A DNA stretch of 64,000 bases from a virus. Its lineage: Duplodnaviria; Caudoviricetes. A program made the position numbers and the translations under genes. Of this stretch, positions 21,669 through 42,756 are shown one piece after another. The stretch lies in IMG/VR virus record IMGVR_UViG_3300032216_000903, positions 1 to 64,000 of that record; one strand, written 5' to 3'. How positions within the stretch are numbered: position 1 is the stretch's first letter; each line of letters begins with the position of its first letter. The notes under the pieces are model-generated. The model saw only the letters and a program-made list of their open reading frames with translations, did no database searches and was not told where the DNA came from.

Positions 21669-22361
21669 ATGAAAGTAGCCGTCATAACGCCATACTATAA
21701 AGAAAGTCCCGAAGTGCTTAAACGATGCATGGATTCTGTAGCCAATCAGACGCATGCTGATATCATTCATGTCATGGTCGCAGATGGATATCCTTCGCGC
21801 TATGTCATCAATCGCGCCGAGGGCAATACTAAGATTATGCATATCGTCATTCCTAACTGCGGAGACTATGGAGATACTCCTCGAGCCATTGGAGCCGCTG
21901 TCATTGCCTGTCGAAAGGAATACGACGCCGTTGCATTCCTCGATGCGGATAACTGGTATGAGCCAGATCATATCGAAGAAGCTCTAAAGCATATGTCGAA
22001 ACCTATTGTTACGACCGGACGGAATCTTCGACGTGTAGATGGATCTTTATTGGCTCCATGTCCTGAATCCGATGGCGTCAACTTCTGTGACACGAATTGC
22101 TACGTCATTCATCGAAATGCATTTGGCGTCATTGGCCGTTGGACTTACAAGGAGAATAAGTACGGTATCGTCGGCGATCGCATGTTCTGGCAGAGCCTTC
22201 CAAAGGAACATGTGGCTCGATCGCCAAAGCATACGGTCAATTACACGACTAAGTTTGCCGTTCACTATTTGCATTTCAAGGAGAAGCCTCCGCTCGATGC
22301 CATCGAATTCAAGAACGGACTCGATGGACTTCCAGTAGCGCATAGATATTATCAGTCTTAA
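21669..22361 (+). CDS. Glycosyltransferase family 2
   Basis: VAVITPYY...SVANQT...VADG...FLDADN. Confidence 0.88.
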   Translation: MKVAVITPYYKESPEVLKRCMDSVANQTHADIIHVMVADGYPSRYVINRAEGNTKIMHIVIPNCGDYGDTPRAIGAAVIACRKEYDAVAFLDADNWYEPDHIEEALKHMSKPIVTTGRNLRRVDGSLLAPCPESDGVNFCDTNCYVIHRNAFGVIGRWTYKENKYGIVGDRMFWQSLPKEHVARSPKHTVNYTTKFAVHYLHFKEKPPLDAIEFKNGLDGLPVAHRYYQS

Positions 22362-22367
22362 TCAATT

Positions 22368-23210: not shown

Positions 23211-23226
23211 AAGAAAGGAATTTGTT

Positions 23227-24069
23227 ATGTTAGCATGCAATCAACTCGGTAACAACGGCCGACTCGGCAATCAGATGTTTCAATATGCAGCGCTGAAGGG
23301 CATCGCGCATCGTCGAGGCTTTGAATACTGTATTCCTCCATTCGATCGTGAGTCTATTGACAACTATGGACTCGGTGAAGCCTTTGACATCAAAGCCAAC
23401 TTTGGCACTCCTAATCTTCAACAGATCGGCGAACCATATTTTCATTACTGTAAAGAACTACACGATCAATGCCCTGACAATGTAAGCCTAGTCGGATACT
23501 ATCAGACGGAGAAGTACTTCAAAGATATCGCGAGTGAGATTCGTAAAGACTTTACATTCAAGAAAGATCTTCTTGATTCTTGTAGAGATACTATGAAGCA
23601 ATTTAATGGAAAGCCAGTTATCTTTCTTCACGTGCGTCGAGGAGATCCTAATCTGGTCGATAGACGTGGATTCAAATGGGCATATGTAAATTGCTCAGAT
23701 CAGCATCCAGTTCAAACGCCTCAGTATTATCAAGAAGCTCTTCTGCAGTTTCCTACAGATTATCCTGTCATGGTATTCTCAGACTCTATCAGTTGGTGCA
23801 AAGAGCAAGAGATCTTTAAGTCTCCTAGATTCTCATTCTCAGAGCCGCTTAGCAAATACTCAGATGGAGCGCTGGTGCCTCACGTCGATCTCTGTCTCAT
23901 GACTCTATGTGATCATGCCATCATCGCAAATAGCAGCATGAGTTGGTGGGGTGCCTGGCTAATTCAGAATCCTAATAAACGAATCGTTGCTCCTAGTCGA
24001 TGGTTTGGCCCTGCATATGCTCATAATAATACGAAGGACATCTACTGCGAAGGATGGAAAGTGATATGA
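23227..24069 (+). CDS. Alpha-1,2-fucosyltransferase-like (GT11)
   Basis: GRLGNQMFQYA, HVRRGD, NSSMSWWGAWL. Confidence 0.9.
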   Translation: MLACNQLGNNGRLGNQMFQYAALKGIAHRRGFEYCIPPFDRESIDNYGLGEAFDIKANFGTPNLQQIGEPYFHYCKELHDQCPDNVSLVGYYQTEKYFKDIASEIRKDFTFKKDLLDSCRDTMKQFNGKPVIFLHVRRGDPNLVDRRGFKWAYVNCSDQHPVQTPQYYQEALLQFPTDYPVMVFSDSISWCKEQEIFKSPRFSFSEPLSKYSDGALVPHVDLCLMTLCDHAIIANSSMSWWGAWLIQNPNKRIVAPSRWFGPAYAHNNTKDIYCEGWKVI

Positions 24070-24911
24070 GTATGAAAATTTTCTCAAACTTCATGCCAAA
24101 GGACCTCTACGAGAGGTGTGCTATTCGTAACGAAGCGTTCATTCTGCCCCCTCGAGTGAGGCCCAGTGTGGCAGATAAGTCGATATCGATATTCAATGAC
24201 TACACTCCAAAGATTGACGAGCTATGGCAGAGTTCACGCAACATCCTGGTCATCTTAGAACCCAATCAACTGTTTGGCCTTCATGATTGGGCGATCTTGA
24301 ATCATAAATTCTTTCATGCGATATTGACGTGGAGCGACGAGATCCTTACGAAGTGTCCGAATTCCGTCTTACTTCCGTTTGGCACGTCTTTCTTATGGGA
24401 GACTCCGGACTTCTATAAAAGCATCACGAGTAAAGATAAGAAGTTCAATGTGTCTTTTCTGTGTGGACAGAAGAATCAGATCGAAGGACAGCAGCTTAGG
24501 CATAAGATCTTGGCGAACGGTCCTCGAGTGACCATCGACAAGCTTTGGCTGTATACGTGTCCTCCAGGAGCGGGTAAGAATCAGTGTTGGCCAAGCATGT
24601 TTCACGTCGCCGTAGAGAATTCAAGGAATAAGAACTACTTCACGGAAAAGGTCATCGACGCGTTCTTGACTAAGACCATTCCGCTGTACTGGGGATGTCC
24701 AAACCTCGGCGATTATTTCAACAAGGATGGGTTCATTGCATTTGAAAATGAAGAAGATCTGATTCAAAAGATAAACTCCTTGACGGAAAAAGACTATCAC
24801 GATCGAGCCGCGGCGATAGAAGAAAACTATCAGAAGGCTTTGTACTACGGAGACTTTTTTTACAGATTCAATGAAACCATCGATAAGCTTGTAGATACTT
24901 GGAAATTATGA
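24066..24911 (+). CDS. Fucosyltransferase-like (GT10)
   Basis: VENSRNKNYFTEKVIDAFLTKTIPLYWG. Confidence 0.82.
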   Translation: MSMKIFSNFMPKDLYERCAIRNEAFILPPRVRPSVADKSISIFNDYTPKIDELWQSSRNILVILEPNQLFGLHDWAILNHKFFHAILTWSDEILTKCPNSVLLPFGTSFLWETPDFYKSITSKDKKFNVSFLCGQKNQIEGQQLRHKILANGPRVTIDKLWLYTCPPGAGKNQCWPSMFHVAVENSRNKNYFTEKVIDAFLTKTIPLYWGCPNLGDYFNKDGFIAFENEEDLIQKINSLTEKDYHDRAAAIEENYQKALYYGDFFYRFNETIDKLVDTWKL

Positions 24912-25609
24912 ATAACAATCCAATGGTTAGCATATGCATACCGACGTATGGCATGAAGGGCCGCGGAGTCGAGTACCTCAATCACTCCATGCAAAAGATC
25001 GCTCGACAGGCATTCAAGGACTTCAACGTTATCATATCCGATCACAGCGAAGACTCTGCGATAGAAGACTACTGCAAGTCGTGGAGCGGCAAGCTTGATA
25101 TTCGCTACGTACGAAATGAAGCGGACAGAGGAAACTCTTCGGCAAATGTAAACAACTGCTTCAAGCACGCAAACGGCCAGATCATAAAGGTATTGTTTCA
25201 AGATGACTTCTTTGTCGACGACTCGAGCTTAGGGACTCAAGTATTTCACTTTGCAAACAACACGAATCACTGGATGGCTACGGCGTGTTGTCATTCTAAA
25301 GACGGCATAAATCTTCATAGCGCGTTCTATCCGATGTATCACGATCGAATTCAGTACGGTCAAAACACGATAAGCTCTCCGAGCGTGCTGATGTTTAAGA
25401 ACAAAGACGTGATCGAGTTTGATAGAAACTTGATCTGGCTCATGGACGTCGATTACTGCAAAAGACTCTATGATGCCTTCGGTCTGCCGAGCATATGCAA
25501 CTACGTCACGGTCGTCAATAGGCAGCACGATAATCAAATTTCAAATACTCTGGCAACGGACGAATTGAGAAAGAAAGAGCTCGAATACGTAATACAAAAA
25601 TACAAATGA
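24908..25609 (+). CDS. Glycosyltransferase family 2
   Basis: VSICIPTY...IISDHS...LFQDD. Confidence 0.85.
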   Translation: MNNNPMVSICIPTYGMKGRGVEYLNHSMQKIARQAFKDFNVIISDHSEDSAIEDYCKSWSGKLDIRYVRNEADRGNSSANVNNCFKHANGQIIKVLFQDDFFVDDSSLGTQVFHFANNTNHWMATACCHSKDGINLHSAFYPMYHDRIQYGQNTISSPSVLMFKNKDVIEFDRNLIWLMDVDYCKRLYDAFGLPSICNYVTVVNRQHDNQISNTLATDELRKKELEYVIQKYK

Positions 25610-26499
25610 TCACGACTGAAATATATAATGGCCAGGGTCTGGGCAATCAGCTTCATTGCTACGTGACGACGAGGGTCGTTGCTCTCGATAAGGGACTGCC
25701 CTTTGGCATCATGAATCTTCATAAGTTCAAGTGCCTCGACTTCATGGATCTCGACTTTGGATTGCCGGTGACTGGAGGATCCGGTCCAGAGGGTGGACCG
25801 CCTACGTCTCTACCAGACGGCATCAAGCACTACTTACGTGAGCGCGACGTGCGATATCCAAATGGCAGCGACATTCGTGTAGACGATCCTAAGTTAGAAG
25901 CGATTGAAGACAATACGAAGATCGACGGATGCTTTCAATCCGAGACTCGAATACTCCATCGCAAGGAAGAGATCAAGCAGTGGCTGAAGGTAAAGCCTGA
26001 AAAAGACTGCTACGAATATGCATCCGACGACATCTGCATCTTGAACTTTAGAGGCGGAGACTATGCCGGTATTCGTGACTTCTTTCTGCATCCAAACTAC
26101 TGGATCAATGCGATCAATAGGATGTATGCAATCAATCCTAAGTTCCGCTTCATCGTCATCACGGACGACGTGCCGTTGGCGTCTAGGTTCTTTCCGATGT
26201 TTGAGGTACATCACTTCAGCATCGCCAAAGACTTCACGATCATCAAGAACGCACACTACTTGATCCTCTCGAATTCGAGCTTTGCTTATTTTCCGACCTT
26301 CATCTCGGAACGAAACAAATATATCTTGGCGCCTAAGTATTGGGGTAGACACAACATCTCTGATGGATACTGGTCGTGTGGCTATAACATCTTCAGAGGA
26401 TACAACTACATCGACAGGGAGAACAAACTGTTCACCTTCGAACAGTGCGACGCGGAGTTCAAAGAATATCAGATTAAAAATAAACACCTATGGGCGTGA
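25606..26499 (+). CDS. GT11-like glycosyltransferase
   Basis: GQGLGNQL, NFRGGDY, ILSNSSF. Confidence 0.8.
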   Translation: MITTEIYNGQGLGNQLHCYVTTRVVALDKGLPFGIMNLHKFKCLDFMDLDFGLPVTGGSGPEGGPPTSLPDGIKHYLRERDVRYPNGSDIRVDDPKLEAIEDNTKIDGCFQSETRILHRKEEIKQWLKVKPEKDCYEYASDDICILNFRGGDYAGIRDFFLHPNYWINAINRMYAINPKFRFIVITDDVPLASRFFPMFEVHHFSIAKDFTIIKNAHYLILSNSSFAYFPTFISERNKYILAPKYWGRHNISDGYWSCGYNIFRGYNYIDRENKLFTFEQCDAEFKEYQIKNKHLWA

Positions 26500-27284
26500 A
26501 ATACGATATCTTTACATTCAATAACGAGCTCGACATGCTTGAGCTTCGTTTGAATCTTCTTAATGATCACGTTGATTACTTCGTCATCGTCGAAGCTACT
26601 GAAAAGTTTAGTGGCGAGCCTAAGCCTCTAAACTACTTCTTGAATAGAGAGAGGTTCAAACAGTTTCATCATAAGATAATTCATCACGTCGTATCGGACA
26701 CTCCGAAGTCATTTGACGACTTAAATTGCAATCAAGCCGTCCTTAAGATGGCGTCTGAGAGTTCGAACGTCACGCGCGAGCATCCGTGCTGGTTAAAGGA
26801 GTTCTATCAAAAAGAATTGATCAAGGATGCTCTAATCCATCTGCAAGACGACGACGTGTGCTACGTGTCCGACGTCGATGAGATCTGGAACTTCAATGAT
26901 CGATTTGAAATTGATAACGACCCGATCTATAAGTTTAACATCGAACTCTGCTATATCGAATATCTAAACGTTCGTACAAATGAAAATTGGACTTACTTTA
27001 CCGGTCCTATCGTCACTCGATATCGCAATATCAAGAACGCTTGTCTGAATCACCTTAGGACATATGGTAAGATGAAAGAAGTATATCAGTATCGACCAGA
27101 CGGCGGATGGCACTTCAATGCGCTCGGTGGAGTCATCAAGAAAGTTCAAGACTTCAGTCATCCATACTATTCTTTGAATCATATGGCATCTAGAAGGAAT
27201 GGATTGGCGCTTGAAGAATCTAAGCTGCCTCAATATATTATAGATAATAAGGAAAAATACAAACACTTATTCATTACATCATGA
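26490..27284 (+). CDS. GT17-like (beta-1,4-GlcNAc transferase-like) glycosyltransferase
   Basis: FNNELDMLELRL...VDYFVIVEA...SDVDEI...GGWHF. Confidence 0.85.
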   Translation: MGVKYDIFTFNNELDMLELRLNLLNDHVDYFVIVEATEKFSGEPKPLNYFLNRERFKQFHHKIIHHVVSDTPKSFDDLNCNQAVLKMASESSNVTREHPCWLKEFYQKELIKDALIHLQDDDVCYVSDVDEIWNFNDRFEIDNDPIYKFNIELCYIEYLNVRTNENWTYFTGPIVTRYRNIKNACLNHLRTYGKMKEVYQYRPDGGWHFNALGGVIKKVQDFSHPYYSLNHMASRRNGLALEESKLPQYIIDNKEKYKHLFITS

Positions 27285-27889
27285 CCAGAACACAGATCAT
27301 CAATGGACTTATAGCAAAAAATAACTATAAGAGCTACCTCGAAATCGGTATCAATGAACCGAGTCCGGATACTCGTCAATGGAATTGGACTGACGTGCAG
27401 ATCGAAACTAAACACGGCGTCGATCCGAACGTAGACACGACGTATAGGATGACGTCAGATGAGTTCTTTGCCAAACCCGTCCCACAGAAATACGACATCA
27501 TCTTCGTCGACGGCCTTCACCTCTTCGAGCAGGTACATCGTGACATCCTCAATTCGTTGAACAATCTAAATGAGAACGGCACGATCGTCGTACATGACTG
27601 CAATCCGATTCATGAGATAACTCAGCGTCGCGAGAGGGTCTCGGCGGCATGGCACGGCGACGTGTGGAAGGCGATCTTAAAGCTCAGGATCGAAGAGCCC
27701 TCGATCTCTATCGACACGGTAGATACGGACGAAGGATGCGGCATCATTCGAAGGGGTAAGCAAGAACTGTTGAATCCAGCTGAAATTGCTTCAAGCTTTG
27801 ACATATATGACTTTTCATACCTCGAAAAGCATAGGCAGAAGTTTTTGAATCTGATCAGCGTCGATCAGTTCGTTAAAAAATACCTATGA
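27281..27889 (+). CDS. Class I SAM-dependent methyltransferase
   Basis: YLEIG, GVDP, DIIFVDGLH, IVVHD. Confidence 0.85.
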   Translation: MTRTQIINGLIAKNNYKSYLEIGINEPSPDTRQWNWTDVQIETKHGVDPNVDTTYRMTSDEFFAKPVPQKYDIIFVDGLHLFEQVHRDILNSLNNLNENGTIVVHDCNPIHEITQRRERVSAAWHGDVWKAILKLRIEEPSISIDTVDTDEGCGIIRRGKQELLNPAEIASSFDIYDFSYLEKHRQKFLNLISVDQFVKKYL

Positions 27890-28527
27890 ATAAACCAAAA
27901 GCTTTCATAGTCGTATCGAGGTATAAAGAAGACGTCAATTGGATCAAGGAGTTGACGGATGACTACGTGATCTATAATAAGGGAGAACCCCTGGGCGAAG
28001 GCTTCAATGAACGGATGCTTCCAAACTTTGGCGGCAATCAATACGACATCTTCAAGTTCATACACGACAACTATGAAAATTTACCTGACTTAATTGCTTT
28101 TGTTCAAGGAAATCCATTCGATCATTGCCTAAAAGAAAGGTTCGATAAGCTCATTCATAATACATATTTCACTCGACTGTTTGGTGATAAAAATTATTTG
28201 AATGGTGTGTATTCAGAAGAAAACAATAGCTGGTACATCAATGGAGGAGCACATAATACCGGTAAGCCTCCAAGCAAGTTTTCTTCATTTGGCGAATATG
28301 CCAATCACATATTTGAAGACTACACTCACGTGAACGTGCTAGATTTTCCTCCGGGATCTCAGCTGATAGTCGAAAAGCAGAGGTGCTTGTTCTACAGTAA
28401 AGCATTCTGGAAGAAGTTGATGGACGTCATTCCGAATCAGATCGGACTGAACGGCGGCAGGGAAGCACACATAGTCGAGAGGTCGATGCAGATTATTTTT
28501 GAGAATAGATATAAAGAGCGAATTTAA
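27886..28527 (+). CDS. DUF3431-like glycan-associated protein
   Basis: IVVSRYKEDVNW...IYNKG...FVQGNPFDH...HIVER. Confidence 0.7.
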   Translation: MNKPKAFIVVSRYKEDVNWIKELTDDYVIYNKGEPLGEGFNERMLPNFGGNQYDIFKFIHDNYENLPDLIAFVQGNPFDHCLKERFDKLIHNTYFTRLFGDKNYLNGVYSEENNSWYINGGAHNTGKPPSKFSSFGEYANHIFEDYTHVNVLDFPPGSQLIVEKQRCLFYSKAFWKKLMDVIPNQIGLNGGREAHIVERSMQIIFENRYKERI

Positions 28528-28528
28528 T

Positions 28529-29620
28529 ATGAGTGAAAATAACAGTTTGAAAAACAATATGAGTAATAATCAGCCAGTAGAAGGTCGTTCGTATACGAGT
28601 AATCACGTTAAACTGCTTAAGCACCTTGACAAGCTCGAATTGATTCAAGAAGGCCTAAGCGGCAGCGGAGTGCATCGAGTGCCCTCTCCCGTGATGTTTC
28701 ACATGTCTCCGTGTAATCCGTGCAATCTGACCTGCAGCTTCTGCTGCTTTGCTAATAGGGCGATGAAAGACATGTTGACTCTGGATCAGATGAAGAAAGC
28801 GATCGACTCGTTTGCCAAGTTGGGCGTGACTGGCATGGAATTGACTGGCGGCGGCGAACCCACCCTTCATCCTGACTTCGACGAAGTCATCAACTATGCG
28901 CACTCTAAAGGCTTCAAGATCGGCGTATGCACCAACGGTACTCGACTCAACAAGATCAAGTCTTGGAATAAGGTCACGTGGGTCAGGCTCGGCATGTATG
29001 GATTCACTGAAGGATACACCTATGACTTGAGCGTGTTTGAAGGCCTCGACATCAAGATCAGTGCGGCCTACGTGTGGGACGAACACGTCGAAACTTCTAC
29101 CAATCCAAACATCACCGGTCAGCACGTCGACAAGACGAACAGAAAGGTCACGACTAAGATTCAGAAGACTGAACACTTCAATCAGATGCTGGAATGGGTG
29201 GAGGCAAATAAGATCCCGACTCGTATCGCTTTTAATGCGATTAAGCCTACTTCTGAAGTGATGAAAGACATCGAAACTATCAGAGGGATCATCGCTGGTC
29301 GAGAATTGAAGTATGCTTTCCTGTCAGACTTCAACTATAAAGGAACTCGCAGGAATAACAACTGCTACATGCACATGGTCAAGCCCTGTGTGTTTACGGA
29401 CGGAAACGTATATGTCTGCCCCTCGGCCGAGCTGGCGCCGGAGATGAACTATCAAGTGAATTCCGAATTGAAAATCTGCGACATCGACGGCATCCTTGAC
29501 TTCTATGAAAAGGGTGGAGTAACCCGCCGACATCATGCGTGCTCATTCTGCAAATATGCAATTCAGAATGAACTGATCGACGACATCGTCAGACCGACTG
29601 AACACAATGAATTTGCTTAA
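28529..29620 (+). CDS. Radical SAM enzyme with C-terminal Cys-rich (SPASM/twitch-like) domain
   Basis: CNLTCSFC, TGGGEP, TNG, C...VYVC...CSFC. Confidence 0.9.
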   Translation: MSENNSLKNNMSNNQPVEGRSYTSNHVKLLKHLDKLELIQEGLSGSGVHRVPSPVMFHMSPCNPCNLTCSFCCFANRAMKDMLTLDQMKKAIDSFAKLGVTGMELTGGGEPTLHPDFDEVINYAHSKGFKIGVCTNGTRLNKIKSWNKVTWVRLGMYGFTEGYTYDLSVFEGLDIKISAAYVWDEHVETSTNPNITGQHVDKTNRKVTTKIQKTEHFNQMLEWVEANKIPTRIAFNAIKPTSEVMKDIETIRGIIAGRELKYAFLSDFNYKGTRRNNNCYMHMVKPCVFTDGNVYVCPSAELAPEMNYQVNSELKICDIDGILDFYEKGGVTRRHHACSFCKYAIQNELIDDIVRPTEHNEFA

Positions 29621-29622
29621 TA

Positions 29623-30246
29623 ATGAAAGTAAATTTTGATCAAGACTACTACGAGAACGGAGTGAAGAAGGGCATAAGCGGATACTCAAACTATTCGTGG
29701 ATGCCTACTCGAAGCATTCCAGAAGCGATATCGATCTGTGAAAACATCGAATTCGAATCTGCTCTAGACTTCGGCTGCGCCAAGGGATTTTTGGTTAATG
29801 CCCTTCACCTGATCAGCGGAAAGCCTATCGTCGGAGTAGACATAAGCGAATACGCCCTGAGCACGGCGCTCCCTCAGGTAAAAGATAAACTGTTTCTGTT
29901 GGATAGAGACCTCTCTCAGATGAACCTAAAAGCGGATCTATTGATAGCCAAAGACGTCTTGGAACACATTCCTGAATCAGAGATAGACAAGACCCTTGCT
30001 GAGTTCTATAAAGTATGCAATAAGGCATTGCTCGTGATACCCCTCGGAGACAACGACTCTTTTAGAATTCGTGAATACGAGATCGACAAGACTCACGTCA
30101 CCAAAAAAGATGAAGAGTGGTGGATCAATAAGATCAAAGACTCTGGATTCAAACTGAAGTACTTCAACTACGCCCTAGGCGACATCAAAGAAAAGTGGAC
30201 GGGTGTGTATAAGCACGGCAACGGATTCTTTATCATAGAGAAGTGA
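29623..30246 (+). CDS. Class I SAM-dependent methyltransferase
   Basis: LDFGCAKG, GVDIS, DVLEHI. Confidence 0.9.
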   Translation: MKVNFDQDYYENGVKKGISGYSNYSWMPTRSIPEAISICENIEFESALDFGCAKGFLVNALHLISGKPIVGVDISEYALSTALPQVKDKLFLLDRDLSQMNLKADLLIAKDVLEHIPESEIDKTLAEFYKVCNKALLVIPLGDNDSFRIREYEIDKTHVTKKDEEWWINKIKDSGFKLKYFNYALGDIKEKWTGVYKHGNGFFIIEK

Positions 30247-33480: not shown

Positions 33481-33867
33481 ATGAATCAACAAACAGAACG
33501 TGAATCAGTAAGAGCCCTTCGCGAATGCATCGAGTTACAACTCAGCAAGTCGCGTGACTATCAGAATCCTAATTCTCGAATCAAGCAGGCAGAATACTAT
33601 CCGAATGGCATCATCACTCTCCTCGACATCATTCATGCCAAGAAGCTTCGCATGGATTCCGTAGTCGCGGCCATGCAGCATGATCCTGAGTATAAGCCTA
33701 ACTTCGAATCTCTTGAAGACTCGGCTAAGGACATGATTAACTACTGCTCATTCATCGTCTCTTACTGTCGTGGCAAGATGGAAGGTCAGAATTCAGATCG
33801 CGACTTTCTCAATCGTCGCATATCGAAACCATCCAACATCGTGCAGGAACTCTTAAACTTAAAATGA
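33481..33867 (+). CDS. Nucleotide-modification-associated (Nmad1-like) all-alpha protein
   Basis: KSRDYQ...K..R...ESLEDSAKDMINY; first gene of the modification operon. Confidence 0.7.
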   Translation: MNQQTERESVRALRECIELQLSKSRDYQNPNSRIKQAEYYPNGIITLLDIIHAKKLRMDSVVAAMQHDPEYKPNFESLEDSAKDMINYCSFIVSYCRGKMEGQNSDRDFLNRRISKPSNIVQELLNLK

Positions 33868-34556
33868 AAAACAAAAAAATGAATGTGATGGATCTTCAGT
33901 GGCACTTCTTCGAGTCTTTGATGGCCGAAGAATTCGTGACCGATAAGTCTGGCGTAAAGACGATCGAGCTGGTCGGTGCTTCGTTTATTGCCGATGAGCC
34001 TACGATCTTTGGCACGGTCAATGAAGACTACATCAATCGTGAACTCGAGTGGTATGAGTCTCAGTCTCTGAATGTGAATGATATTCCCGGCAAGGTTCCC
34101 GAGATCTGGAAGCAGGTCGCTGACAAGGACGGCTTCATCAACTCAAACTACGGATGGTGCATCTGGTCTCCAATGAACTTCGATCAGTACAAGAAGTGCC
34201 GAGCCGAGCTGATTGCAAACAAGGACACACGTAGAGCCATCATGATCTACACTCGTCCGACGATGCATGAAGATGCCTTTCATAGCGGCCGATCCGACTT
34301 CATGTGCACCAATACCGTGCAGTACCTGATTCGCGAAGGCAAGATGCACTGCGTCGTACAAATGCGCTCGAATGATGTGGTATTCGGATATCGCAACGAT
34401 CGCGCTTGGCAGAAGCACGTCCTCGATACCTTGGTCGCCGACTATAATCGCCTGACTGAATCTAAGATCGAAGCCGGTGACATTCACTGGAACGTCGGCA
34501 GCCTACACATCTACGAGAGGCACTTCAAACTGGTCGAGGACTGGTATAAGCCATGA
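33864..34556 (+). CDS. gp42: dCMP hydroxymethylase (T4 gp42-type, thymidylate synthase fold)
   Basis: INSNYGW, DFMCT catalytic Cys, MRSNDVVFGYRNDRAWQKHVL, WNVGSLHIY; Asp at the cytosine-specificity position (34398-34400). Confidence 0.9.
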   Translation: MKNKKMNVMDLQWHFFESLMAEEFVTDKSGVKTIELVGASFIADEPTIFGTVNEDYINRELEWYESQSLNVNDIPGKVPEIWKQVADKDGFINSNYGWCIWSPMNFDQYKKCRAELIANKDTRRAIMIYTRPTMHEDAFHSGRSDFMCTNTVQYLIREGKMHCVVQMRSNDVVFGYRNDRAWQKHVLDTLVADYNRLTESKIEAGDIHWNVGSLHIYERHFKLVEDWYKP

Positions 34557-34984: not shown

Positions 34985-35382
34985 CAAACGTAACTGACTT
35001 CATCGTCGATCATCGAGCTTCCGATCGAGTCCTTGTGCTGGGCATGTCTCCGGCCAAGAACAATCGGCCGTTCAAGAACTGCTCGCTCAATCGACTGAGT
35101 AAATGGATGAAGATCATAGGTCAAGGAGAGTGGTCGTTTCACAACGTCATTCCAGACGTGCATGGATCGGCCAACATATGCGACGTAGATCCACAGGCGC
35201 TTTACGACGCCGTGAACGGCAAGGAAAGGGTGATCGCGCTCGGCACGTTCGTCTCGAGCGTATGCTCTAAATACGGTATAGAACACCATCGCATCCATCA
35301 TCCGTCTCCGAGGAATAGGTCCCTCAATGATCCTGGAGTCGAGAGGAAGATGCTGAGCACACTGAAAGAATACTTAAAATGA
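34981..35382 (+). CDS. Uracil-DNA-glycosylase-superfamily small protein
   Basis: VLVLGMSP, FHNV, VIALG, HHPSPRN. Confidence 0.7.
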   Translation: MTNVTDFIVDHRASDRVLVLGMSPAKNNRPFKNCSLNRLSKWMKIIGQGEWSFHNVIPDVHGSANICDVDPQALYDAVNGKERVIALGTFVSSVCSKYGIEHHRIHHPSPRNRSLNDPGVERKMLSTLKEYLK

Positions 35383-36590
35383 TTGAACCAACACCATACT
35401 ATCAGGACTTCCTTCGCTACTTCAGGCTCGCCAAGGAACAGCAGGAGAAGTGCAACGTGTCGTTGAATCCTCCGTACGGAATGCTCACGCACGCAGAATC
35501 CAAAATGAACGACGGACTCCTCGAGAACGTGGAACTCTACGACGTCGTCGAGCGTAAGTACGCCGGATTCTCTCAGATCGTAAACGACTGCTTCTATGGA
35601 TGGACTGATAGACATCCGTACTGGAAGAAGATGGAGGCAGGTAAGATCACTCGTCAACGAGATCAGGTCGCCCATGATTGGACCGGTAAGCATGCACACT
35701 TTGGCCTGGCCGAATGGCTCTACATCTTCATTCTCCATCGAGTATGCGGTTCCGGCATCAACTACGCTCAGAAGCCTTCGGGCTATCATAACACTCTGCT
35801 TTTGAAGCTTCATCGAGCCAAGTCGATCGAGGACATGTGTGAGATGGTCAAGAACGAGCAGAACTCCTTCTACACTTCCGTAGGATATCAGTTCCCTGCG
35901 TTTCCTAAGCCTCCGGCTGGATATAAGCGCGGAGGCGACTACTACCTCTGTGAGTTCGCTCCTCGACTGGCTCGTGATCTGGCAGACTGGCTTCAAACAC
36001 CGGCATTTGGAAAGAAAACTCTACGCGGTATCGGCGAGTTCATGCTCGATTGGAATGTCGTAAACGGCCTTCGTCAGTATCACTTTCAATATGCGGCCAT
36101 CATAGCCGACATCGCAGACTGGTATCCTCAATACGTCGATCGCCAATCGATGTTCTTCTATGGATCGAACGCCGAGCAGTGCATCTCGTATCTGGCTCGT
36201 CCTCTCAAGAAGATGAAGACTCAGGCTTTCCTCGACGCCGTGATGGAGATGGCGTGTAAAGATACTAATGAAGTTCCCTACAACATAGAAGACGTCTGCT
36301 GTGACTATATTCGATACTGTACAAATTACGTACGCATGGGCGAGGCATATAATTCCCTCGATCGCGACAAGGTATTCAACTCTTCGAAGATCATTCATCC
36401 GTATGGTCGACAGAAGGCGATGCTCGACCTCGGACTCGTGAAGACGTTCAACGACCCTTCGCAGAACTTCTACTACGACGAGGTGATCAAGGCAAACAAC
36501 CTGACCGAGAGGGAATACATCAAGCTCGTTCAGGATCATCCGAACTACAAGGACTGGATCGGAGTACCAGAAAAATTCCCCACTAAATAA
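35379..36590 (+). CDS. Divergent 5-hmU-DNA-kinase / aGPT-Pplase1-like helical protein (paralogue A)
   Basis: Pattern resembles the family: DGLLENVELYDVVER, ILHRVCG, FQYAAIIAD, YGSNA, NIEDVCCDYIRY; next to gp42 and the PLP enzyme. Confidence 0.55.
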   Translation: MIEPTPYYQDFLRYFRLAKEQQEKCNVSLNPPYGMLTHAESKMNDGLLENVELYDVVERKYAGFSQIVNDCFYGWTDRHPYWKKMEAGKITRQRDQVAHDWTGKHAHFGLAEWLYIFILHRVCGSGINYAQKPSGYHNTLLLKLHRAKSIEDMCEMVKNEQNSFYTSVGYQFPAFPKPPAGYKRGGDYYLCEFAPRLARDLADWLQTPAFGKKTLRGIGEFMLDWNVVNGLRQYHFQYAAIIADIADWYPQYVDRQSMFFYGSNAEQCISYLARPLKKMKTQAFLDAVMEMACKDTNEVPYNIEDVCCDYIRYCTNYVRMGEAYNSLDRDKVFNSSKIIHPYGRQKAMLDLGLVKTFNDPSQNFYYDEVIKANNLTEREYIKLVQDHPNYKDWIGVPEKFPTK

Positions 36591-36594
36591 AATT

Positions 36595-37476
36595 ATGGCA
36601 CACGACGAACACGTAATCGATGGCAACAATAAAGACGTCCCGATGGGAATGTCTTACGAGGAGGCGAAGCAGTACTACCTGAGCCTATGCGAGGGCTGGA
36701 CTCCATACAACAGTTCTCCGATGGTGATCGAGCACGAGGGAGTGCAGGTGGTTCGAGATGACCTGACCGTGGGTACCAAGACTCGAGCCGGCGACCTCCT
36801 CTGCTCAAAGATTCTGAATAAGACCCTCGTGTATTGTCAGCCTCGAGTTGGACTGGCCGGAGTATCTCTATGCGATGTAGCCAAGCGTCACAACAAGGAC
36901 GTAGTCCTATTCATGCCGTCGTCGAAGGAGATCTCGCTCCATCAGGCTTGCTGCATCGAACGCGGAGCCACTCCGATCTTCGAACGCATCGCGGCTATGC
37001 CGAATCTTAACCTCTACGCCAAGAAGTGGGCTGACGAACACAATGCCTGTTTCATTCCTCTGGGTCTGAAGCACGAGCTAGCGACGGCGGCGATCGTGCA
37101 TGCCGCCTCAACGATCCCTGAGCCCGACGAAGTGTACGTGGCTATCTCTACCGGTGTCCTCTCTCGAGCCCTTCAGATCGCTTGGCCGAATGCCAAGTTT
37201 ACCTGCGTCGCCGTGGCTCGCAATCTACAGGCTGGTGAACTTGGTCGTGCTGAAGTCATCTCGGAACCTCTGGCATTTCCACAGTCTGAGAAGAAAGAAA
37301 ATCTACCACCGTTTCCGACCGTTGCCAGTTACGACGGAAAAATTTGGAAATATATTCCCAAGGATGGCAAGAAGCGCCGACTGATGTGGAATGTTGGCCG
37401 TGACCCCATTCTAAAAGACGCATCGATAATTGTAAAGACGGACTCTTATCGTAAATGGAAGAAGGACATGCAATGA
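36595..37476 (+). CDS. PLP-dependent enzyme, fold type II (TrpB/ACC-deaminase-like)
   Basis: VVRDDL..GTKTR (PLP lysine), FIPLGL, AISTGVL, YDGK. Confidence 0.85.
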   Translation: MAHDEHVIDGNNKDVPMGMSYEEAKQYYLSLCEGWTPYNSSPMVIEHEGVQVVRDDLTVGTKTRAGDLLCSKILNKTLVYCQPRVGLAGVSLCDVAKRHNKDVVLFMPSSKEISLHQACCIERGATPIFERIAAMPNLNLYAKKWADEHNACFIPLGLKHELATAAIVHAASTIPEPDEVYVAISTGVLSRALQIAWPNAKFTCVAVARNLQAGELGRAEVISEPLAFPQSEKKENLPPFPTVASYDGKIWKYIPKDGKKRRLMWNVGRDPILKDASIIVKTDSYRKWKKDMQ

Positions 37477-38474
37477 ACGACATTCTATATCCTAACACGG
37501 CTCAGATTACACTCAAGGACGGCAAGCCCAAGGACTCTTGGATGCGCGACTGGACGCATGAGGAGCGCGTGGCGAAGTTCTTTGAGTTCTGTCGTAAGTT
37601 TGACCTTCGTGAGGATAAGCTGCTCAGCGAAGACTATCAGATCTTCTCCCATCGCCTTCACTGGCACGAGCACCCCTTCGTTGAACTCATGACAGGAGTA
37701 AAGGACTCGCGCGATCGCCTCTGGTACGCCCTTGTCTTCTCGTTTACCAATGAGCACTGGGGTACGCTGACTCACCTGATGACGCATGGCATTGATAAGA
37801 CTCGCGAGCACTTTAAGCATAATCGTCATGCTCGATCTGACTTATTTCAGATCTACTATCCCAAGGGTACGGATGTAAAGGAATGGCTCCTGACCGGACC
37901 ATTGAAGGCGGCAAATGCTCTGCATCATCATCTTACAAATGGTAAGAGATACACGATGATGCAGTTTGCCAAGATCCTCGAGGCTCACTTCAAGAAAGAA
38001 CAGAACTTTCGTTCTCCGCTCTATCCGTGTAAGAACACGGCTCGATACGTTGCGATGGCGTTTCCGCACCTCGTAGATCCTGAGTCCGTCCTCTACGGAG
38101 GTACTGGGCATTTCGACGGCATGCATCAGATCTTTCTAGAGAACGTGAATGGCAAGGCTAAGTACGAGATCGATGCGAATGGAGAGTTCGTTCCAAAGAA
38201 TCATCAGGCCAATGTGTGGCTCGCTCAGATGAGTTATCTCTGCGAGCATTCAGATAATCCTATGACTTCTCAGCATTGGTTGAACGTAGAGGATAAGGGA
38301 TGTTTTTTTTACAAACACATTGCGATTACACATGATGTGAAGAGTCCAACGAAGCGCATTCCATACACGTGGATCTTTCCAGAGAATTTCAATCTGGCAA
38401 AGCATCCGGCTGGTAAAGTGATAATCAATGGTAAAACAACTTCACAAATAGATGTACAAGGCTCATTTGACTGA
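37473..38474 (+). CDS. Divergent 5-hmU-DNA-kinase / aGPT-Pplase1-like helical protein (paralogue B)
   Basis: Architecture similar to paralogue A: EDKLL, LVFSFTN, FPHLVDPES..YGGTG, NVEDKGCFFYKH. Confidence 0.5.
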   Translation: MNDILYPNTAQITLKDGKPKDSWMRDWTHEERVAKFFEFCRKFDLREDKLLSEDYQIFSHRLHWHEHPFVELMTGVKDSRDRLWYALVFSFTNEHWGTLTHLMTHGIDKTREHFKHNRHARSDLFQIYYPKGTDVKEWLLTGPLKAANALHHHLTNGKRYTMMQFAKILEAHFKKEQNFRSPLYPCKNTARYVAMAFPHLVDPESVLYGGTGHFDGMHQIFLENVNGKAKYEIDANGEFVPKNHQANVWLAQMSYLCEHSDNPMTSQHWLNVEDKGCFFYKHIAITHDVKSPTKRIPYTWIFPENFNLAKHPAGKVIINGKTTSQIDVQGSFD

Positions 38475-38489
38475 TATAATGTCTACAAT

Positions 38490-38684
38490 ATGACACACGA
38501 GTTCGAGCATCCTATGTGGGTCAAGACTCCACTGGGACATGGATTGGCCGTCATGATTATAGACTACGGTATCCACTTGAATAGCTGCTGGGTGGTTGCG
38601 CTAGAAGATCACGACTGGCAGATAAAGCATTTCGATTCAAATGACATTAAGCTAAATCGTAACGACACCTGGAAGATTCAATAA
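38490..38684 (+). CDS. Hypothetical protein
   Basis: WVKTPLGHG...IIDYG; TGTAC-N17-TATAAT promoter at 38453-38480. Confidence 0.65.
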   Translation: MTHEFEHPMWVKTPLGHGLAVMIIDYGIHLNSCWVVALEDHDWQIKHFDSNDIKLNRNDTWKIQ

Positions 38685-38686
38685 TC

Positions 38687-39793
38687 ATGAAAGCATTAGT
38701 CACGGCACCATTCATTCCGATAGTTCCTCGTTTGGCATCACATAGATCCTCGCAAGGTGTCATCTATGCCGATCAGATTCGACAGACTGGCGAGTATGAT
38801 GTTGTCGATATCAACTGGGCAGGCAATGCTCACGAAGATCATAATCAATACGACGTAGTCTACGTTTACTGGGGATCCGACTGGACCGGTGGCTTGAATC
38901 TCTTTGGTGGAGTGCAATCGTTTCCCTATGCTTGGAACATTCGTAACTTCTCAAAGTTCAAGGGCAAGGTATATTCTTTGGCCGTAGACTTTCCAAAGAT
39001 CGATGAGATGATTGAAGAACGCATTCTAAATGCTTCGAGCAAGAAGAAGGAGATTCAGCCAGAGTGGCTCGAAGTCGATATTCAGAATCTCAAGCGCATG
39101 CGTATTGAATCTACTCGAGTTCGTTTTCCACACATCACGGAGAAGGTGGTCATTGGAGACTCTCATTCAATCTGCATGCATCGTCCGGGATGGACGGTCA
39201 ACTCAGTTCCATTCAAGACTCTGAATGGTGCATTGTCGCTCGGGCTCAATACATTCATCGAAGAGTTCACCTCCATCGATCGAGTATCTTCTGCTGAGTT
39301 CTACTTTGGCAACATCGACGTGCGTCATCATCTCTGTCGTTTGGAAGGTGATTCATTTACAAACACGATGTCTCTGGCTCTTCGATATGTAGAGGCCGTC
39401 GAGATGCTTCCGATCAAGGACGTGTCGATCTACGAACTCCTACCCCTCGAGAACGAGTCTCGTAAGTTACCTAAGACCGGTTACTATAAAGGCAAGCCGT
39501 TCTGGGGAACATGGGCTCAGCGCGCTGAAGTCCGTCATACATTTAATCAGGCCGTCGAGAAGGCCACACGTCGTGCCAAGTTCATTCGCTGGACCGACTA
39601 TCTTCTGAACGACAAGGGCGAGCTCGACTTTAAGTTCATGGAGAAGCCTCATTCGATTCATCTTTCACGCGAGTTCTATCCTCATTGGAATGGAATAGAT
39701 ACCTTCAGCACTCCGAAGAAATTATCTAAAGTGCCGCATAAACCTGAATTATTAGAAGTACCGCATAACTCCCTAGAAACCTTTTTTGAATGA
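38687..39793 (+). CDS. SGNH/GDSL-like protein with C-terminal clamp-binding-type tail
   Basis: VIGDSH, FGNID, SIHL; ends SLETFFE. Confidence 0.65.
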   Translation: MKALVTAPFIPIVPRLASHRSSQGVIYADQIRQTGEYDVVDINWAGNAHEDHNQYDVVYVYWGSDWTGGLNLFGGVQSFPYAWNIRNFSKFKGKVYSLAVDFPKIDEMIEERILNASSKKKEIQPEWLEVDIQNLKRMRIESTRVRFPHITEKVVIGDSHSICMHRPGWTVNSVPFKTLNGALSLGLNTFIEEFTSIDRVSSAEFYFGNIDVRHHLCRLEGDSFTNTMSLALRYVEAVEMLPIKDVSIYELLPLENESRKLPKTGYYKGKPFWGTWAQRAEVRHTFNQAVEKATRRAKFIRWTDYLLNDKGELDFKFMEKPHSIHLSREFYPHWNGIDTFSTPKKLSKVPHKPELLEVPHNSLETFFE

Positions 39794-39812
39794 CTTCGAA
39801 AAATAATTACTC

Positions 39813-39852
39813 AGTCCATGTGCTGGATAGTATAAATACCAGCACATGGACT
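39813..39852 (+). promoter_or_regulatory. Late promoter in the loop of a 14-bp hairpin that sequesters the endonuclease start codon
   Basis: AGTCCATGTGCTGG-ATAG-TATAAATA-CCAGCACATGGACT; ATG at 39846 lies in the 3' arm. Confidence 0.85.
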
Positions 39853-40442
39853 CAATAATCAAATCAGAAGGTTACGTATATCACATTCAAAACCCAAACA
39901 ATCCATCGATAGAAGAAGGATATATCGGTGTCGTAAATGCTAAAAAGGGCATCTATCGAAGATTTCGAGAACATTCTACTGATTGCGATCATATGCGAAA
40001 GCGTATAAGAGAAAATAATGTAACATTTGAAAACCATGTTAAAATAGTATTTCAAGGCTCATTAAAAGAATGTTATATGAAAGAACATGAATTGAGATCA
40101 TCTCAAAAAATAGGATGGAATGTAGCTAGTGGTGGAGCTGGATGGAATTATAAAAGTGATATCAGCGATTTATCTAAATATCGTTCTGATATTCAAAAGC
40201 AAAGAATGGAAGATGAAGATTTGAAACGTCGTCAAAGCGAATCATTCAAAAAGAATTATTATGCTAATGAAGAAGTTCAAAAGCTTCGCAGTGATCGAGC
40301 AAAAGAACATATGTCAAATCCTGAAAAACGCGATAAATGTTTAAATGCGATGCATAAAAAAATTAAGTGCCCACATTGTGAATATGAAAATAATGCAGGA
40401 AACGTGAAGTTACATATTAAAAGAAAACATTCAAATGATTAA
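39846..40442 (+). mobile_element. Free-standing GIY-YIG homing endonuclease (Seg-like) with C-terminal C2H2 finger
   Basis: GYVY...GYIG...RF.EH...E...GWN...GG; CPHC...H...H; markedly AT-rich. Confidence 0.85.
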
Positions 40443-41640
40443 ACATGCCAGTATCGTCCCATTGATTGGTGGTAATACACTAGCTTCTCAAAATATATTT
40501 GGTCATAGACCAGACTATCTTCTATCATATTCACCATTTAAAGCCAATGATTCACATCTTGTAAACTATTATGATAATGAAATGCCATATATTTTATTAG
40601 ATGAAGGTGGTAAGTATCCTCACAAGGTCGATGTTGTTACAACGTGTTGCCCTTGTGCAGGTCTCTCGGCTCTATCGCCTTCCGCGTCTGGTACGAGCGC
40701 GATGAACGAATGGATGTTTCGTTCGGCTGAATATGTCCTTGGCAACATCAAGCCTCGTGTATTCTGGGGTGAGAATGCGCCACGTCTGGCATCAAAGCTT
40801 GGAGAACCTGTGGTAGATCGCCTTCGTAAGATTGGCAAGGAGAATGGATATACGTTCTCGATCTTTAAGACCAAGTCAAAAGTACATGGACTCTCACAGG
40901 TCCGTGAACGTACATTCTACTTCTTCTGGCAAGGAGATAAGATTCCGCTCCTCGAGTACTGCAATCATTCTTCCAATGAACGCATCGAGGATACAATCGA
41001 CATGGCAAAGAATGCGGCCAAGAACGACCCGATGTCTCAGATCCTGGCTTCGAAGAAGGTTCCTTCACAGGATCCTTACTATCGCTACCTTCTCGAAGAG
41101 GTTCATGGAGGCATCTCTCATCGCAAGTTTGCCGAGTCACTCACTCGAACGGCCAACGTGCTTCGCTCGATCGAGGGAGCACCGGGTCACGACTACATGC
41201 GAGTCGCCGCTTGGATGGAAAAGAACGGATTCTCTAAGCTCGCTGAACGATCCAAGGGAATGCATCTGAAGCTAGGCATGGGTGGAAACATTATGCGTAA
41301 GCAGATCGAGGTACCGTGCGACGTCATCGGCGCATTTGTCGGTCACATGCCCACGATGCTCACACATCACCGTCACGATCGATTCCTCAACGTCCGTGAG
41401 TGCCTATCGATCATGAAGATGCCTCTGGACTTTCAACTCCTGAATCCGCTTCGCAATCTGAATCACGTATGTCAGAACGTTCCGGTCACGACGGCCGAAC
41501 ATCCGGCTCGAATGGTCAAGATGTTCCTCGAAGATAAGCTTCCGCTCGATGACTACGCGGACGGATTCTTGATTCAGGACAATGTGCGCCAGTGCGTCAC
41601 GTCTGGAGAAGCGGCCTCACTGGAAACATTTATGGCTTAA
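40435..41640 (+). CDS. C5-cytosine DNA methyltransferase-like protein with degenerate SAM-binding motif I
   Basis: PCAGLS (IV), ENA (VI), QVRER (VIII), RFLNVRE (IX), QNVP (X); motif I reads VPLIGG; ends SLETFMA. Confidence 0.8.
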   Translation: MIKHASIVPLIGGNTLASQNIFGHRPDYLLSYSPFKANDSHLVNYYDNEMPYILLDEGGKYPHKVDVVTTCCPCAGLSALSPSASGTSAMNEWMFRSAEYVLGNIKPRVFWGENAPRLASKLGEPVVDRLRKIGKENGYTFSIFKTKSKVHGLSQVRERTFYFFWQGDKIPLLEYCNHSSNERIEDTIDMAKNAAKNDPMSQILASKKVPSQDPYYRYLLEEVHGGISHRKFAESLTRTANVLRSIEGAPGHDYMRVAAWMEKNGFSKLAERSKGMHLKLGMGGNIMRKQIEVPCDVIGAFVGHMPTMLTHHRHDRFLNVRECLSIMKMPLDFQLLNPLRNLNHVCQNVPVTTAEHPARMVKMFLEDKLPLDDYADGFLIQDNVRQCVTSGEAASLETFMA

Positions 41641-41682
41641 TCGGTGTACAATTAACAATCATCAGTTTATATTATCAGCTCT

Positions 41683-42756
41683 ATGGCAACATCTACATCA
41701 CTACTCGAACGCCTCAAGAAGGCATCTAAGATCGACGGCGCGGAAGTCATGGCGGACTCAAAGCTATTTGGCGTGAAGGAGTTCACTAAGACGGAAGTGC
41801 CCATGATCAACGCGGCGCTCTCTGGTTCACTCGACGGCGGCCTGACCTCTGGCCTGACCGTGCTGGCTGGTCCCTCTAAACACTTCAAGACCTCGTTCGG
41901 CCTGCTCATGGTCGGCGCCTATCTGAAGCAGAATCCGGATGCCGTGTGCATGTTCTACGACTCCGAGTTTGGATCTCCGCAGTCTTACTTCACCTCGTTC
42001 GGCATCGATCCCTCTCGAGTCCTTCATACGCCGATCACGAACGTCGAAGAACTCAAGTTCGATCTGGTCTCTCAGCTCCAGAACATCAATCGCGGCGACA
42101 AGGTCATCATCATGATCGACTCCATCGGCAATCTGGCTTCAAAGAAAGAAGTGGAGGACGCGATCAACGAGAAGTCCGTGGCCGACATGACTCGAGCAAA
42201 AGCTCTGAAGGGTCTGTTCCGCATGGTCACTCCCATGTTGACTCTGAAGGACATTCCTCTCTTGGCGGTCAATCACATCTATATGACTCAGGAGATGTAC
42301 TCTAAGCCGGTCGTCTCTGGTGGTACCGGCATCTACTACTCGGCCGATACGATCTGGATCATCGGTCGTCAGCAGGATAAAGACGGAGACGAGATGAAGG
42401 GCTATCACTTCATCATCAACGTCGAGAAGTCCCGCTTCGTCCGCGAGAAGTCCAAGATCCCGATCTCTGTGTCTTGGGAAGGTGGCATCGAGAGGAACTC
42501 CGGTCTGCTCGACGTTGCGTTCGAGGGTGGATATGTTACCAAGCCTCAGGTCGGCTGGTACGTCGCCCACGATCCGAAGACCAAGAAGGACCTGTCCAAG
42601 AAGCTCCGCGCCGATCAGACCTTCGACGACTCGTTCTGGAATTCCATCTACGAAAAGACTGACTTCAAAGAATATGTTAAGAACCGCTACTCAATGGGCC
42701 ACAAGGAAATGCTTACGTCTCGTCCGAATGCTGGGTCTGAAGAAGATGCCGATTGA
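41683..42756 (+). CDS. uvsX: RecA-like recombinase UvsX
   Basis: AGPSKHFKT, FYDSEFG, DSIGNLASKKE, EKSRFVREK. Confidence 0.96.
   Translation: MATSTSLLERLKKASKIDGAEVMADSKLFGVKEFTKTEVPMINAALSGSLDGGLTSGLTVLAGPSKHFKTSFGLLMVGAYLKQNPDAVCMFYDSEFGSPQSYFTSFGIDPSRVLHTPITNVEELKFDLVSQLQNINRGDKVIIMIDSIGNLASKKEVEDAINEKSVADMTRAKALKGLFRMVTPMLTLKDIPLLAVNHIYMTQEMYSKPVVSGGTGIYYSADTIWIIGRQQDKDGDEMKGYHFIINVEKSRFVREKSKIPISVSWEGGIERNSGLLDVAFEGGYVTKPQVGWYVAHDPKTKKDLSKKLRADQTFDDSFWNSIYEKTDFKEYVKNRYSMGHKEMLTSRPNAGSEEDAD

Follow-up and report, generated by a model that had tools for sequence, protein, structure and literature searches.

Ligands that bind gp45, the sliding clamp of T4, carry interchangeable hydrophobic and acidic C-termini, which follow divergent linkers and dock at a hydrophobic patch on the C-face of the clamp (PMC2988020). 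Reviewed gp45 ligands are the DNA polymerase gp43, the late sigma factor gp55, the late co-activator gp33, and the clamp loader; the same review describes the C-terminus of T4 gp55 as a conserved hydrophobic and acidic clamp epitope, and calls the clamp epitopes of gp55, gp33, and gp43 "highly similar" and freely interchangeable. The RB69 clamp has been solved with the C-terminal 11-mer of the polymerase (PDB 1b8h). In eukaryotes, a PIP-box recruits the maintenance cytosine methyltransferase DNMT1 to the clamp PCNA (PMC9690074). The 5-hydroxymethyldeoxyuridine (5-hmdU) DNA kinase family has been tied to post-replicative 5-hmdU modification in DNA (PMC5889632, PMC8989533), and the phage enzyme CmoX demonstrates that a C5-methyltransferase-type enzyme can transfer a carboxymethyl group (PMC12783734). 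Here we describe a 64,000-nucleotide stretch of viral DNA (the window; positions 1 to 64,000 of IMG/VR record IMGVR_UViG_3300032216_000903) in which two enzymes, one with an SGNH/GDSL hydrolase fold and one with a C5-cytosine-methyltransferase (C5-MTase) fold, end in peptides of the pattern [ST]LExF[FM]. We consider it likely that these C-termini are gp45-docking epitopes of the same class as the tails of the phage's own gp43 and gp55.

The window belongs to a 94.8-kb viral contig (IMG/VR class) that is approximately 52% complete, and its source is an uncultured marine T4-like phage. T4-type replication and late-transcription genes are present, almost all of them on the + strand. The proposed docking platform is a gp45-type trimeric sliding clamp (12818–13489, + strand; phrog_223 match, 9e-64), whose profile matched two solved clamps in the PDB, that of RB69 (1b77/1b8h; 6.5e-47) and that of T4 (1czd; 1.6e-43). 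Two reference clamp clients are encoded as well: the family-B DNA polymerase gp43 (17452–20028, + strand; matches to PF00136, 5e-26, and PF03104), which ends in GSLEEFFG with the tail SLEEFFG at 20005–20025, and the late sigma factor gp55 (4898–5542, + strand; phrog_234 match, 7e-52), which ends in SSLELFSLLS with the tail SLELFSLLS at 5513–5539. The same short hydrophobic and acidic ending closes two further proteins. A 368-amino-acid two-domain enzyme (38687–39793, + strand) ends in NSLETFFE, the predicted gp45-docking peptide SLETFFE being residues 362–368 (39770–39790), and a 401-amino-acid protein with a C5-MTase fold (40435–41640, + strand) ends in ASLETFMA, with the tail SLETFMA at residues 395–401 (41617–41637).

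These four C-termini lie exactly where an earlier reading made from the DNA letters alone (hereafter the sequence-only reading) had placed them, and its remark that no other open reading frame (ORF) carries the tail holds within the window, where a scan of all C-termini returned gp43, gp55, and the two enzymes only. The pattern SLE.F, and equally [ST]L[DE].F, occurs four times in the 76 + strand proteins (19,420 amino acids), every time within the last 10 residues (positional probability 2.3e-6). When the residues of each protein were shuffled, the expected number of such C-termini was 0.005 per proteome, and two or more did not arise in any of 2,000 shuffles. All ORFs of 30 amino acids or more across the whole contig were also scanned, which added no strict match in real genes.

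Two proteins encoded outside the window have endings of a looser kind. A conserved 122-amino-acid ORF (contig positions 77205–77573; L106:13205–13573, + strand) ends in SSIETFFQ after a long, probably disordered linker; its homologue in the related contig G001 is 46% identical (E 1.5e-32) and has the identical tail FSSIETFFQ. The ORF has no match in PHROG, the PDB, or cultured phages, and it could, as a guess from its size and architecture, be a late co-activator of the gp33 type. A baseplate-hub protein (contig positions 86968–87684; L107:10968–11684, − strand; phrog_150, 7e-61) ends in LSGLQSFFV, placed directly behind a zinc-ribbon-like CPKCK without a linker, and the copy in G001 ends in LNGLQAFFA. 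This terminus is probably a structural end that matches the loose pattern by chance.

The tails are retained across relatives of both enzymes. The database holds 1,472 homologues of the SGNH-fold protein at E ≤ 0.001, and we counted tails in the best 120 of them, which reach down to 51% identity, and likewise in the best 120 homologues of the C5-MTase-fold protein. For the former, 100 sequences end in a strict [ST]L[DE]x[aromatic/hydrophobic] tail and another 14 in a loose form, and for the latter the terminal hydrophobic tail is kept in 117. The sequence-only reading had named conservation in orthologs beforehand as its test, and with loose forms counted the tail is conserved in 114/120 and 117/120 sequences, respectively. 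The approximately 25 residues ahead of the SGNH tail vary freely in both sequence and length among the same 120 homologues, and in the AlphaFold2 (AF2) model of the window protein residues 352–360 have a predicted local distance difference test (pLDDT) score below 50 before a short helix at the terminus; the epitope thus sits on a divergent, unstructured linker. Close relatives of the C5-MTase-fold protein end in SLETFM or SLETFF, and those at approximately 57% identity in QL[TD]xFM[VLI]. The SGNH tail persists down to 27–34% identity in cultured Aeromonas phages.

To see which genes carry such an ending, we took a census of 80 related IMG/VR loci with 2,002 ORFs of at least 80 amino acids, using the pattern L[DESTQN]xF[FMLIVY]. 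The 213 tailed ORFs comprise 76 SGNH-fold proteins, 58 C5-MTase-fold proteins, 21 gp43 proteins, approximately 52 members of a third family, discussed below, and approximately six short spurious cases. Against this, one could hold that the tails look alike by chance, or because of some other signal at the C-terminus (for instance for degradation or packaging), and that they have no common partner, and the baseplate-hub ends (GLQSFFV and GLQAFFA) illustrate that structural proteins can match a loose pattern. The confinement of the pattern to a few families across the 2,002 ORFs, the retention of the motif in over 95% of the 240 homologues while the linker before it varies freely, and the excess of four observed over 0.005 expected tails per proteome make this explanation extremely improbable.

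The tails of the two enzymes resemble the gp43 tail of their own genome. The comparison covered four longer related contigs in which gp43 and gp55 were located (G001, G002, G004, and G005). In G005, gp43 ends in ATLEDFFV and the SGNH-fold enzyme in NTLEDFFV, such that the two share the identical heptapeptide TLEDFFV, while the C5-MTase-fold enzyme ends in LRLDQFMI and gp55 in DLSEFMQ. In G004, the corresponding endings are STLDEFFA for gp43, NDLEEFFG for the SGNH-fold enzyme, LQLDQFMV for the C5-MTase-fold enzyme, and KLELFMG for gp55, and in G001, they are GSLESFF, TILEEFFA, SSLETFFS, and SSLEMFLAKH. The fourth contig, G002, has SDLSDFFC on gp43 and NSLDQFFS on the SGNH-fold enzyme; its gp55 has no ending of the tail type, and the stretch of it that was compared contains no C5-MTase homologue. 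The gp43 tails found among relatives thus include SLESFF, TLDEFFA, TLEDFFV, and DLSDFFC.

Structure prediction placed the SGNH tail on the clamp. We predicted the complex of a gp45 trimer, with an alignment of 108 sequences, and residues 329–368 of the SGNH-fold protein, along with three controls. The interface score ipSAE was 0.63 for the SGNH tail and 0.00 for the best of the three controls; among solved complexes, 58 of 80 attain the mark used for this score, as do 2 of 110 mismatched pairs. Runs had at least 45% of their contacts in common, and the pLDDT of the partner was at least 41. The sequence-only reading had proposed such a prediction as a check, and its outcome agreed: the tail, and nothing else of the fragment, docks in a pocket of gp45. 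The confident interface comprises only residues 359–368, with L363 and F366 as the predicted anchors, and the predicted pocket is formed by gp45 residues 33, 36–40, 104–109 (the interdomain loop), 181, 199–201, 214, and 216–219. This pocket is hydrophobic and lies on the face bearing the clamp C-terminus, consistent with C-face docking at the level of prediction.

A different hub could in principle be the partner, be it the beta clamp of the host, gp32, or some other scaffold of the phage. The motif of the bacterial beta clamp is QLxLF, and the QL[TD]xFM[VLI] tails of distant C5-MTase homologues look like it. The same class of peptide, however, is found at the ends of gp43 and gp55, and their homologues in T4 are well-established ligands of gp45 (PMC2988020), the heptapeptide shared in G005 links the SGNH-fold enzyme with a polymerase, and the model places the tail in the gp45 pocket whereas the controls score 0.00. 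In addition, cyanophage S-TIM5 lacks a gp45 homologue and its C5-MTase homologue has no tail. Together these observations make binding to another hub very improbable. The claim of the sequence-only reading that both enzymes ride the clamp and couple modification to replication is supported by the results above, from which we infer the physical binding; none of the checks made along its proposals spoke against it.

The 368-amino-acid protein matched no Pfam family even at E ≤ 10 and is related to phrog_13881 and phrog_17781, both of function unknown, at about 1e-44. Its AF2 model has a mean pLDDT of 87.5 and shows an N-terminal alpha/beta domain (residues 1–145; 38687–39121, + strand), an SGNH/GDSL hydrolase-fold domain (residues 146–335; 39122–39691, + strand), and a variable disordered linker (residues 336–361; 39692–39769, + strand), delimited by pLDDT and by variation among homologues, that leads into the tail. 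The SGNH domain has the three-layer alpha/beta/alpha fold of that superfamily. Foldseek matched it to the platelet-activating factor (PAF) acetylhydrolase 1bwq (E 8.7e-6), and VIA to 9kqz with Z 12.8 (root-mean-square deviation [rmsd] 3.3, 171 aligned) and to several GDSL esterases with Z of approximately 12; across the Z range 12.8–10, the matches are GDSL esterases, sialate O-acetylesterases, and OatA/PatB O-acetyltransferases. Among 47 sequences of the family, G157-D158-S159-H160, G181, G208-N209, and H325 are invariant, which supplies the Ser of block I (GDS(x)), the Gly of block II, the GxN of block III, and the His of block V. The "SGNH-like" label given from the letters is therefore borne out by the fold and by the invariant GDSH, GN, and His residues.

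The N-terminal domain, in which S18-H19-R20, Y61, G63, and D65 are invariant, folds well by itself (residues 1–148, pLDDT 90.5). Its top match with both VIA and Foldseek is the N-domain of T4 beta-glucosyltransferase (BGT): VIA aligned 108 residues to BGT residues 1–137 with Z 7.3, rmsd 2.8 Å, and 20% identity, the runner-up having Z 5.9, and Foldseek matched it to 1qkj with E 4.2e-3 and TMq 0.58. The match lends moderate support to the view that this domain is a DNA-facing module.

The 401-amino-acid protein matches PF00145 with 51 bits (cutoff 22; E 1.9e-13). In 41 sequences of the family, P73-C74, E113-N114, Q155xR157xR159, R321-E322, and Q347-N348-V349 are invariant, corresponding to motifs IV (PC), VI (ENx), VIII (QxRxR), IX (RE), and X (xNV) of C5-MTases. 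Motif I is present as invariant P9-L10-I11-G12-G13 (PLIGG), in which the first Gly of the canonical S-adenosylmethionine-binding FxGxG is replaced. The protein scores 27.5 bits against the NCBIfam model dcm (TIGR00675), under its cutoff of 100.65, and is thus a divergent member of the C5-MTases. A profile of the family reached M.HaeIII (the nearest, 7.9e-6) and M.HhaI in the PDB, where a single-sequence phmmer search gave no match. We use "C5-MTase" as a label for the fold and motifs only, as the transferred group is not readable from sequence.

The third tailed family found in the census is homologous to 5-hmdU DNA kinases (PF18723, E 1e-9 to 1e-13), and the proteins of five relatives score 36.5–51.6 bits against the cutoff of 25. 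In most relatives, the kinase-like gene is directly upstream of the SGNH gene, and in one of them (L072), the order is kinase-like, SGNH, and MTase, every one of them tailed, followed by uvsX. Tailed homologues are also found in the cultured Aeromonas phages 31, 44RR2.8t, UP87, AS-gz, and 25. ORF233c of Aeromonas phage 31 (795 amino acids) is 34% identical to the window SGNH protein over residues 1–350, and its residues 384–774 match the family of kinase-like proteins (hhalign, E 3.9e-45 at a probability of 100%); this fusion of an SGNH and a kinase-like part has the C-terminus SLDGLFAI. The homologue in UP87 is an 805-amino-acid fusion with the same ending, and that in AS-gz is a standalone protein of 348 amino acids with 27% identity that ends in TLELFDI. 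In phage 31 itself, gp43B ends in NLFDMFDI and gp55 in NLDNFYEDEPET. The gp43 of this phage (AY962392, 19.7–22.4 kb; L003/L004) is split into ORFs of 510 and 432 amino acids, and the tail NLFDMFDI is on the second. The fusion functionally links the SGNH family to a DNA-kinase-type enzyme, and since it ends in the tail, the tail was retained at the new C-terminus after domain rearrangement. A BLASTP search with the C-terminal half of the Aeromonas fusion found no counterpart in the window, and megablast of positions 38000–42000 against cultured phages gave no match.

Around the two enzyme genes, the window contains genes for a divergent thymidylate synthase (TS)-superfamily protein, a dCMP-deaminase-like protein, a MazG-like protein, and uvsX. 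The TS-superfamily protein (33864–34556) scores 46 bits against the 327-bit thymidylate-synthase cutoff and is below every such equivalog cutoff; its sequence is compatible with a pyrimidine hydroxymethylase acting on dCMP or dUMP. Where most relatives have the kinase-like gene, the window has a pyridoxal phosphate (PLP)-enzyme-like ORF (36595–37476), a 339-amino-acid ORF (37455–38474), and a 64-amino-acid ORF, and the same arrangement is found in the close relatives L006–L011. The module upstream of the SGNH gene is thus swapped (window 36595–38684 versus L072:7198–9962), and at this site most other relatives have an Inos-1-P-synthase-like ORF of 437 amino acids together with the tailed 5-hmdU DNA kinase homologue. 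The swap suggests that different modification chemistries are arranged around a constant SGNH enzyme. The 339-amino-acid ORF has no match in Pfam or PHROGs, nor to the kinase-like profile.

Farther upstream, a 403-amino-acid ORF (35379–36590) is conserved next to the SGNH gene in L006–L011, L021, L034, and L045; in L034 and L045, the two genes are immediate neighbors. The ORF carries no tail and matched nothing in Pfam. Its neighbors in the protein atlas are clusters with PF18723 in 11–36% of their members, and we considered it as a member of the tailed kinase-like family, but the profile–profile probability was 0.3% and Pfam searches on 10 members were negative, which leaves it as a lead only. 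An equivalence with the 437-amino-acid Inos-1-P-synthase-like ORF of the relatives was rejected, the two being unrelated. Between both tailed genes, a 198-amino-acid ORF (39846–40442) has weak C2H2 zinc-finger matches only; L006 has it and L034 has it in part, but it is absent from L007, L010, and L011, in which the MTase gene comes straight after the SGNH gene. Such presence and absence is typical of a mobile insertion, for example a putative homing endonuclease. The region 21654–30246 encodes GT2, GT10, GT11, and GT17 glycosyltransferases, an NAD epimerase, methyltransferases, a DUF3431 protein, and a radical-SAM enzyme, and looks like an inserted sugar-modification island. The cluster is absent in relatives such as L072 and L020, in which gp43 is only approximately 10 kb upstream of the SGNH gene.

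The sequence-only reading had further made the SGNH protein a DNA-acting enzyme of acyl transfer or hydrolysis. The DNA-acting role gains three independent supports, namely the adjacent tailed 5-hmdU kinase homologue in relatives, the Aeromonas fusion, and the BGT-like N-domain; the part concerning DNA as the substrate and the chemistry itself is something that we infer. A competing explanation accepts that the tails bind gp45 but gives the binding other ends: a timing or allosteric switch, competition with gp43 and gp55 that regulates replication or late transcription, or a non-DNA substrate of the SGNH enzyme at replication sites. We know of no SGNH-fold enzyme that acts on DNA, the closest structures are lipid or carbohydrate esterases or acyltransferases, and the sugar-modification island at 21.6–30.2 kb could provide non-DNA substrates. 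Yet the SGNH family adjoins or is fused with DNA-acting kinase homologues that have the same tail, its partner in the window has the fold of a DNA C5-methyltransferase, the best match of its N-domain is a domain of a DNA glucosyltransferase, and the tailed trio is kept in relatives without the sugar island. We therefore judge a role outside DNA modification improbable, less so than a binding partner other than gp45.

Several observations weigh against docking on gp45 for the purpose of DNA modification. The complexes of the RB69 and T4 clamps with peptides have been solved, and the high score of the predicted complex may reflect memory of these structures instead of being independent proof; the prediction, moreover, covers the SGNH tail only, that is, one of the two enzymes. 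Pseudoalteromonas phage XG4 has gp45, yet its approximately 30%-identical MTase homologue is tailless, and the tail is thus not obligatory for the MTase family. Together with the tailless homologue of S-TIM5, this case indicates that the tail is a lineage-specific add-on outside the methyltransferase fold. A search of the phage's own contig, approximately 52% complete, with the kinase-like profile gave no match, and the sub-lineage of the window is without the tailed kinase-like gene. In the SGNH domain, the Asp of block V at His-3 (DxxH) is not conserved: the family consensus around the block is MEKPxSIH, and position 322, which varies in the family, is a His here. The invariant E319 might stand in for the missing Asp. 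Finally, the likeness of the N-domain to BGT is only moderate, with Z 7.3 being below 8 and no match by sequence models.

If the enzymes do dock on gp45, each tail would be tethered by a flexible linker, with its Leu and Phe side chains entering the hydrophobic pocket on the C-face of a gp45 subunit, and the epitope-bearing enzymes would use the same pocket as gp43 and gp55. Clamps loaded at replication would remain on the daughter DNA, and because of this the enzymes would be concentrated on new phage DNA and able to slide along it. Post-replicative base modification could thereby be fast, processive, and complete ahead of nuclease attack. As the likeliest chemistry we propose that a group derived from a hydroxymethyl-pyrimidine undergoes acyl transfer or hydrolysis, performed along with the kinase-like or PLP-type neighbors. 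In a bolder version, which we offer tentatively and think rather unlikely, the gp45 trimer is an assembly line on which up to three sequential enzymes (kinase-like, BGT-N/SGNH, and C5-MTase-fold), one in each pocket, process nascent DNA jointly, with the SGNH enzyme acting on a hydroxymethyl-pyrimidine base in DNA by O-acyl transfer or by hydrolysis. To our knowledge, this chemistry is so far undescribed for any SGNH enzyme.

A full-text literature search combining clamp terms with hypermodification or 5-hmdU DNA kinase returned nothing relevant, and we found no publication on such gp45 clients. The novelty lies in the clients, base-modification enzymes, and the docking system is a known one. 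If true, the finding would add DNA base modification to the replication and late transcription that the "toolbelt" of the T4 clamp already serves, account for how the genomes of fast-replicating phages become modified fully enough to evade nucleases, and provide a parallel of DNMT1–PCNA in a prokaryotic virus. The tail would also serve as a cheap sequence marker for a DNA-acting role of phage proteins that defy annotation, such as the SGNH family with its more than 1,400 homologues, and the tailed homologues in cultured Aeromonas phages make the idea directly testable.

In comparison with described enzymes, the C5-MTase-fold protein is comparable to CmoX of Synechococcus phage S-B43, which is a DNA cytosine C5-carboxymethyltransferase (PMC12783734), in being a C5-MTase fold of a marine phage that possibly transfers a group other than methyl and gives a handle for hypermodification. 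It differs in that no CmoA/CmoY partner was identified beside the window gene, and the description of CmoX does not mention a clamp or a tail. The SGNH-fold protein shares with the SGNH/GDSL esterases and O-acyltransferases (1bwq, sialate O-acetylesterases, and OatA/PatB) the fold of residues 146–335 and the Ser of block I, the Gly-Asn of block III, and the His of block V; unlike them, it is without a sequence-family match and without the Asp at His-3, and it has an additional BGT-N-like domain, a clamp-type tail, and a gene context pointing to DNA. The thymidine hypermodification pathways with 5-HMUDK (the 5-hmdU DNA kinase), described for ViI, M6, PhiW-14, and SP10 (PMC5889632, PMC8989533), are similar in being post-replicative and starting from a hydroxymethyl-pyrimidine already in DNA; the relatives have a protein of the same PF18723 kinase family, and TS-superfamily and PLP-enzyme-like genes are close by. 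In contrast, neither of the two papers mentions a clamp or tail, the described pathways are without SGNH-fold or C5-MTase-fold partners, and the window lineage is without a detectable PF18723 gene.

The closest resemblance is to clamp clients themselves. Like the gp43, gp55, and gp33 epitopes of T4 and RB69, the peptides described here are short, hydrophobic and acidic, located at the extreme C-terminus after an unstructured linker of divergent sequence, and almost identical between clients within a phage, and they share the docking in the hydrophobic pocket of the clamp C-face, which is here predicted. Clients known so far comprise the polymerase, the late sigma factor, the co-activator, and the clamp loader, whereas those proposed here are DNA base-modification enzymes, one with the SGNH fold, one with the C5-MTase fold and, among relatives, one homologous to the 5-hmdU DNA kinase. 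With DNMT1–PCNA, the locus has in common a C5-cytosine-methyltransferase-fold enzyme with a clamp-binding peptide, here a putative one, that would couple modification to replication. The differences are that the clamp is gp45, the motif is C-terminal and not in the N-terminal region as in DNMT1, and the arrangement belongs to a phage and is of independent origin, and that, in place of a single methyltransferase, several enzymes of one pathway share the motif.

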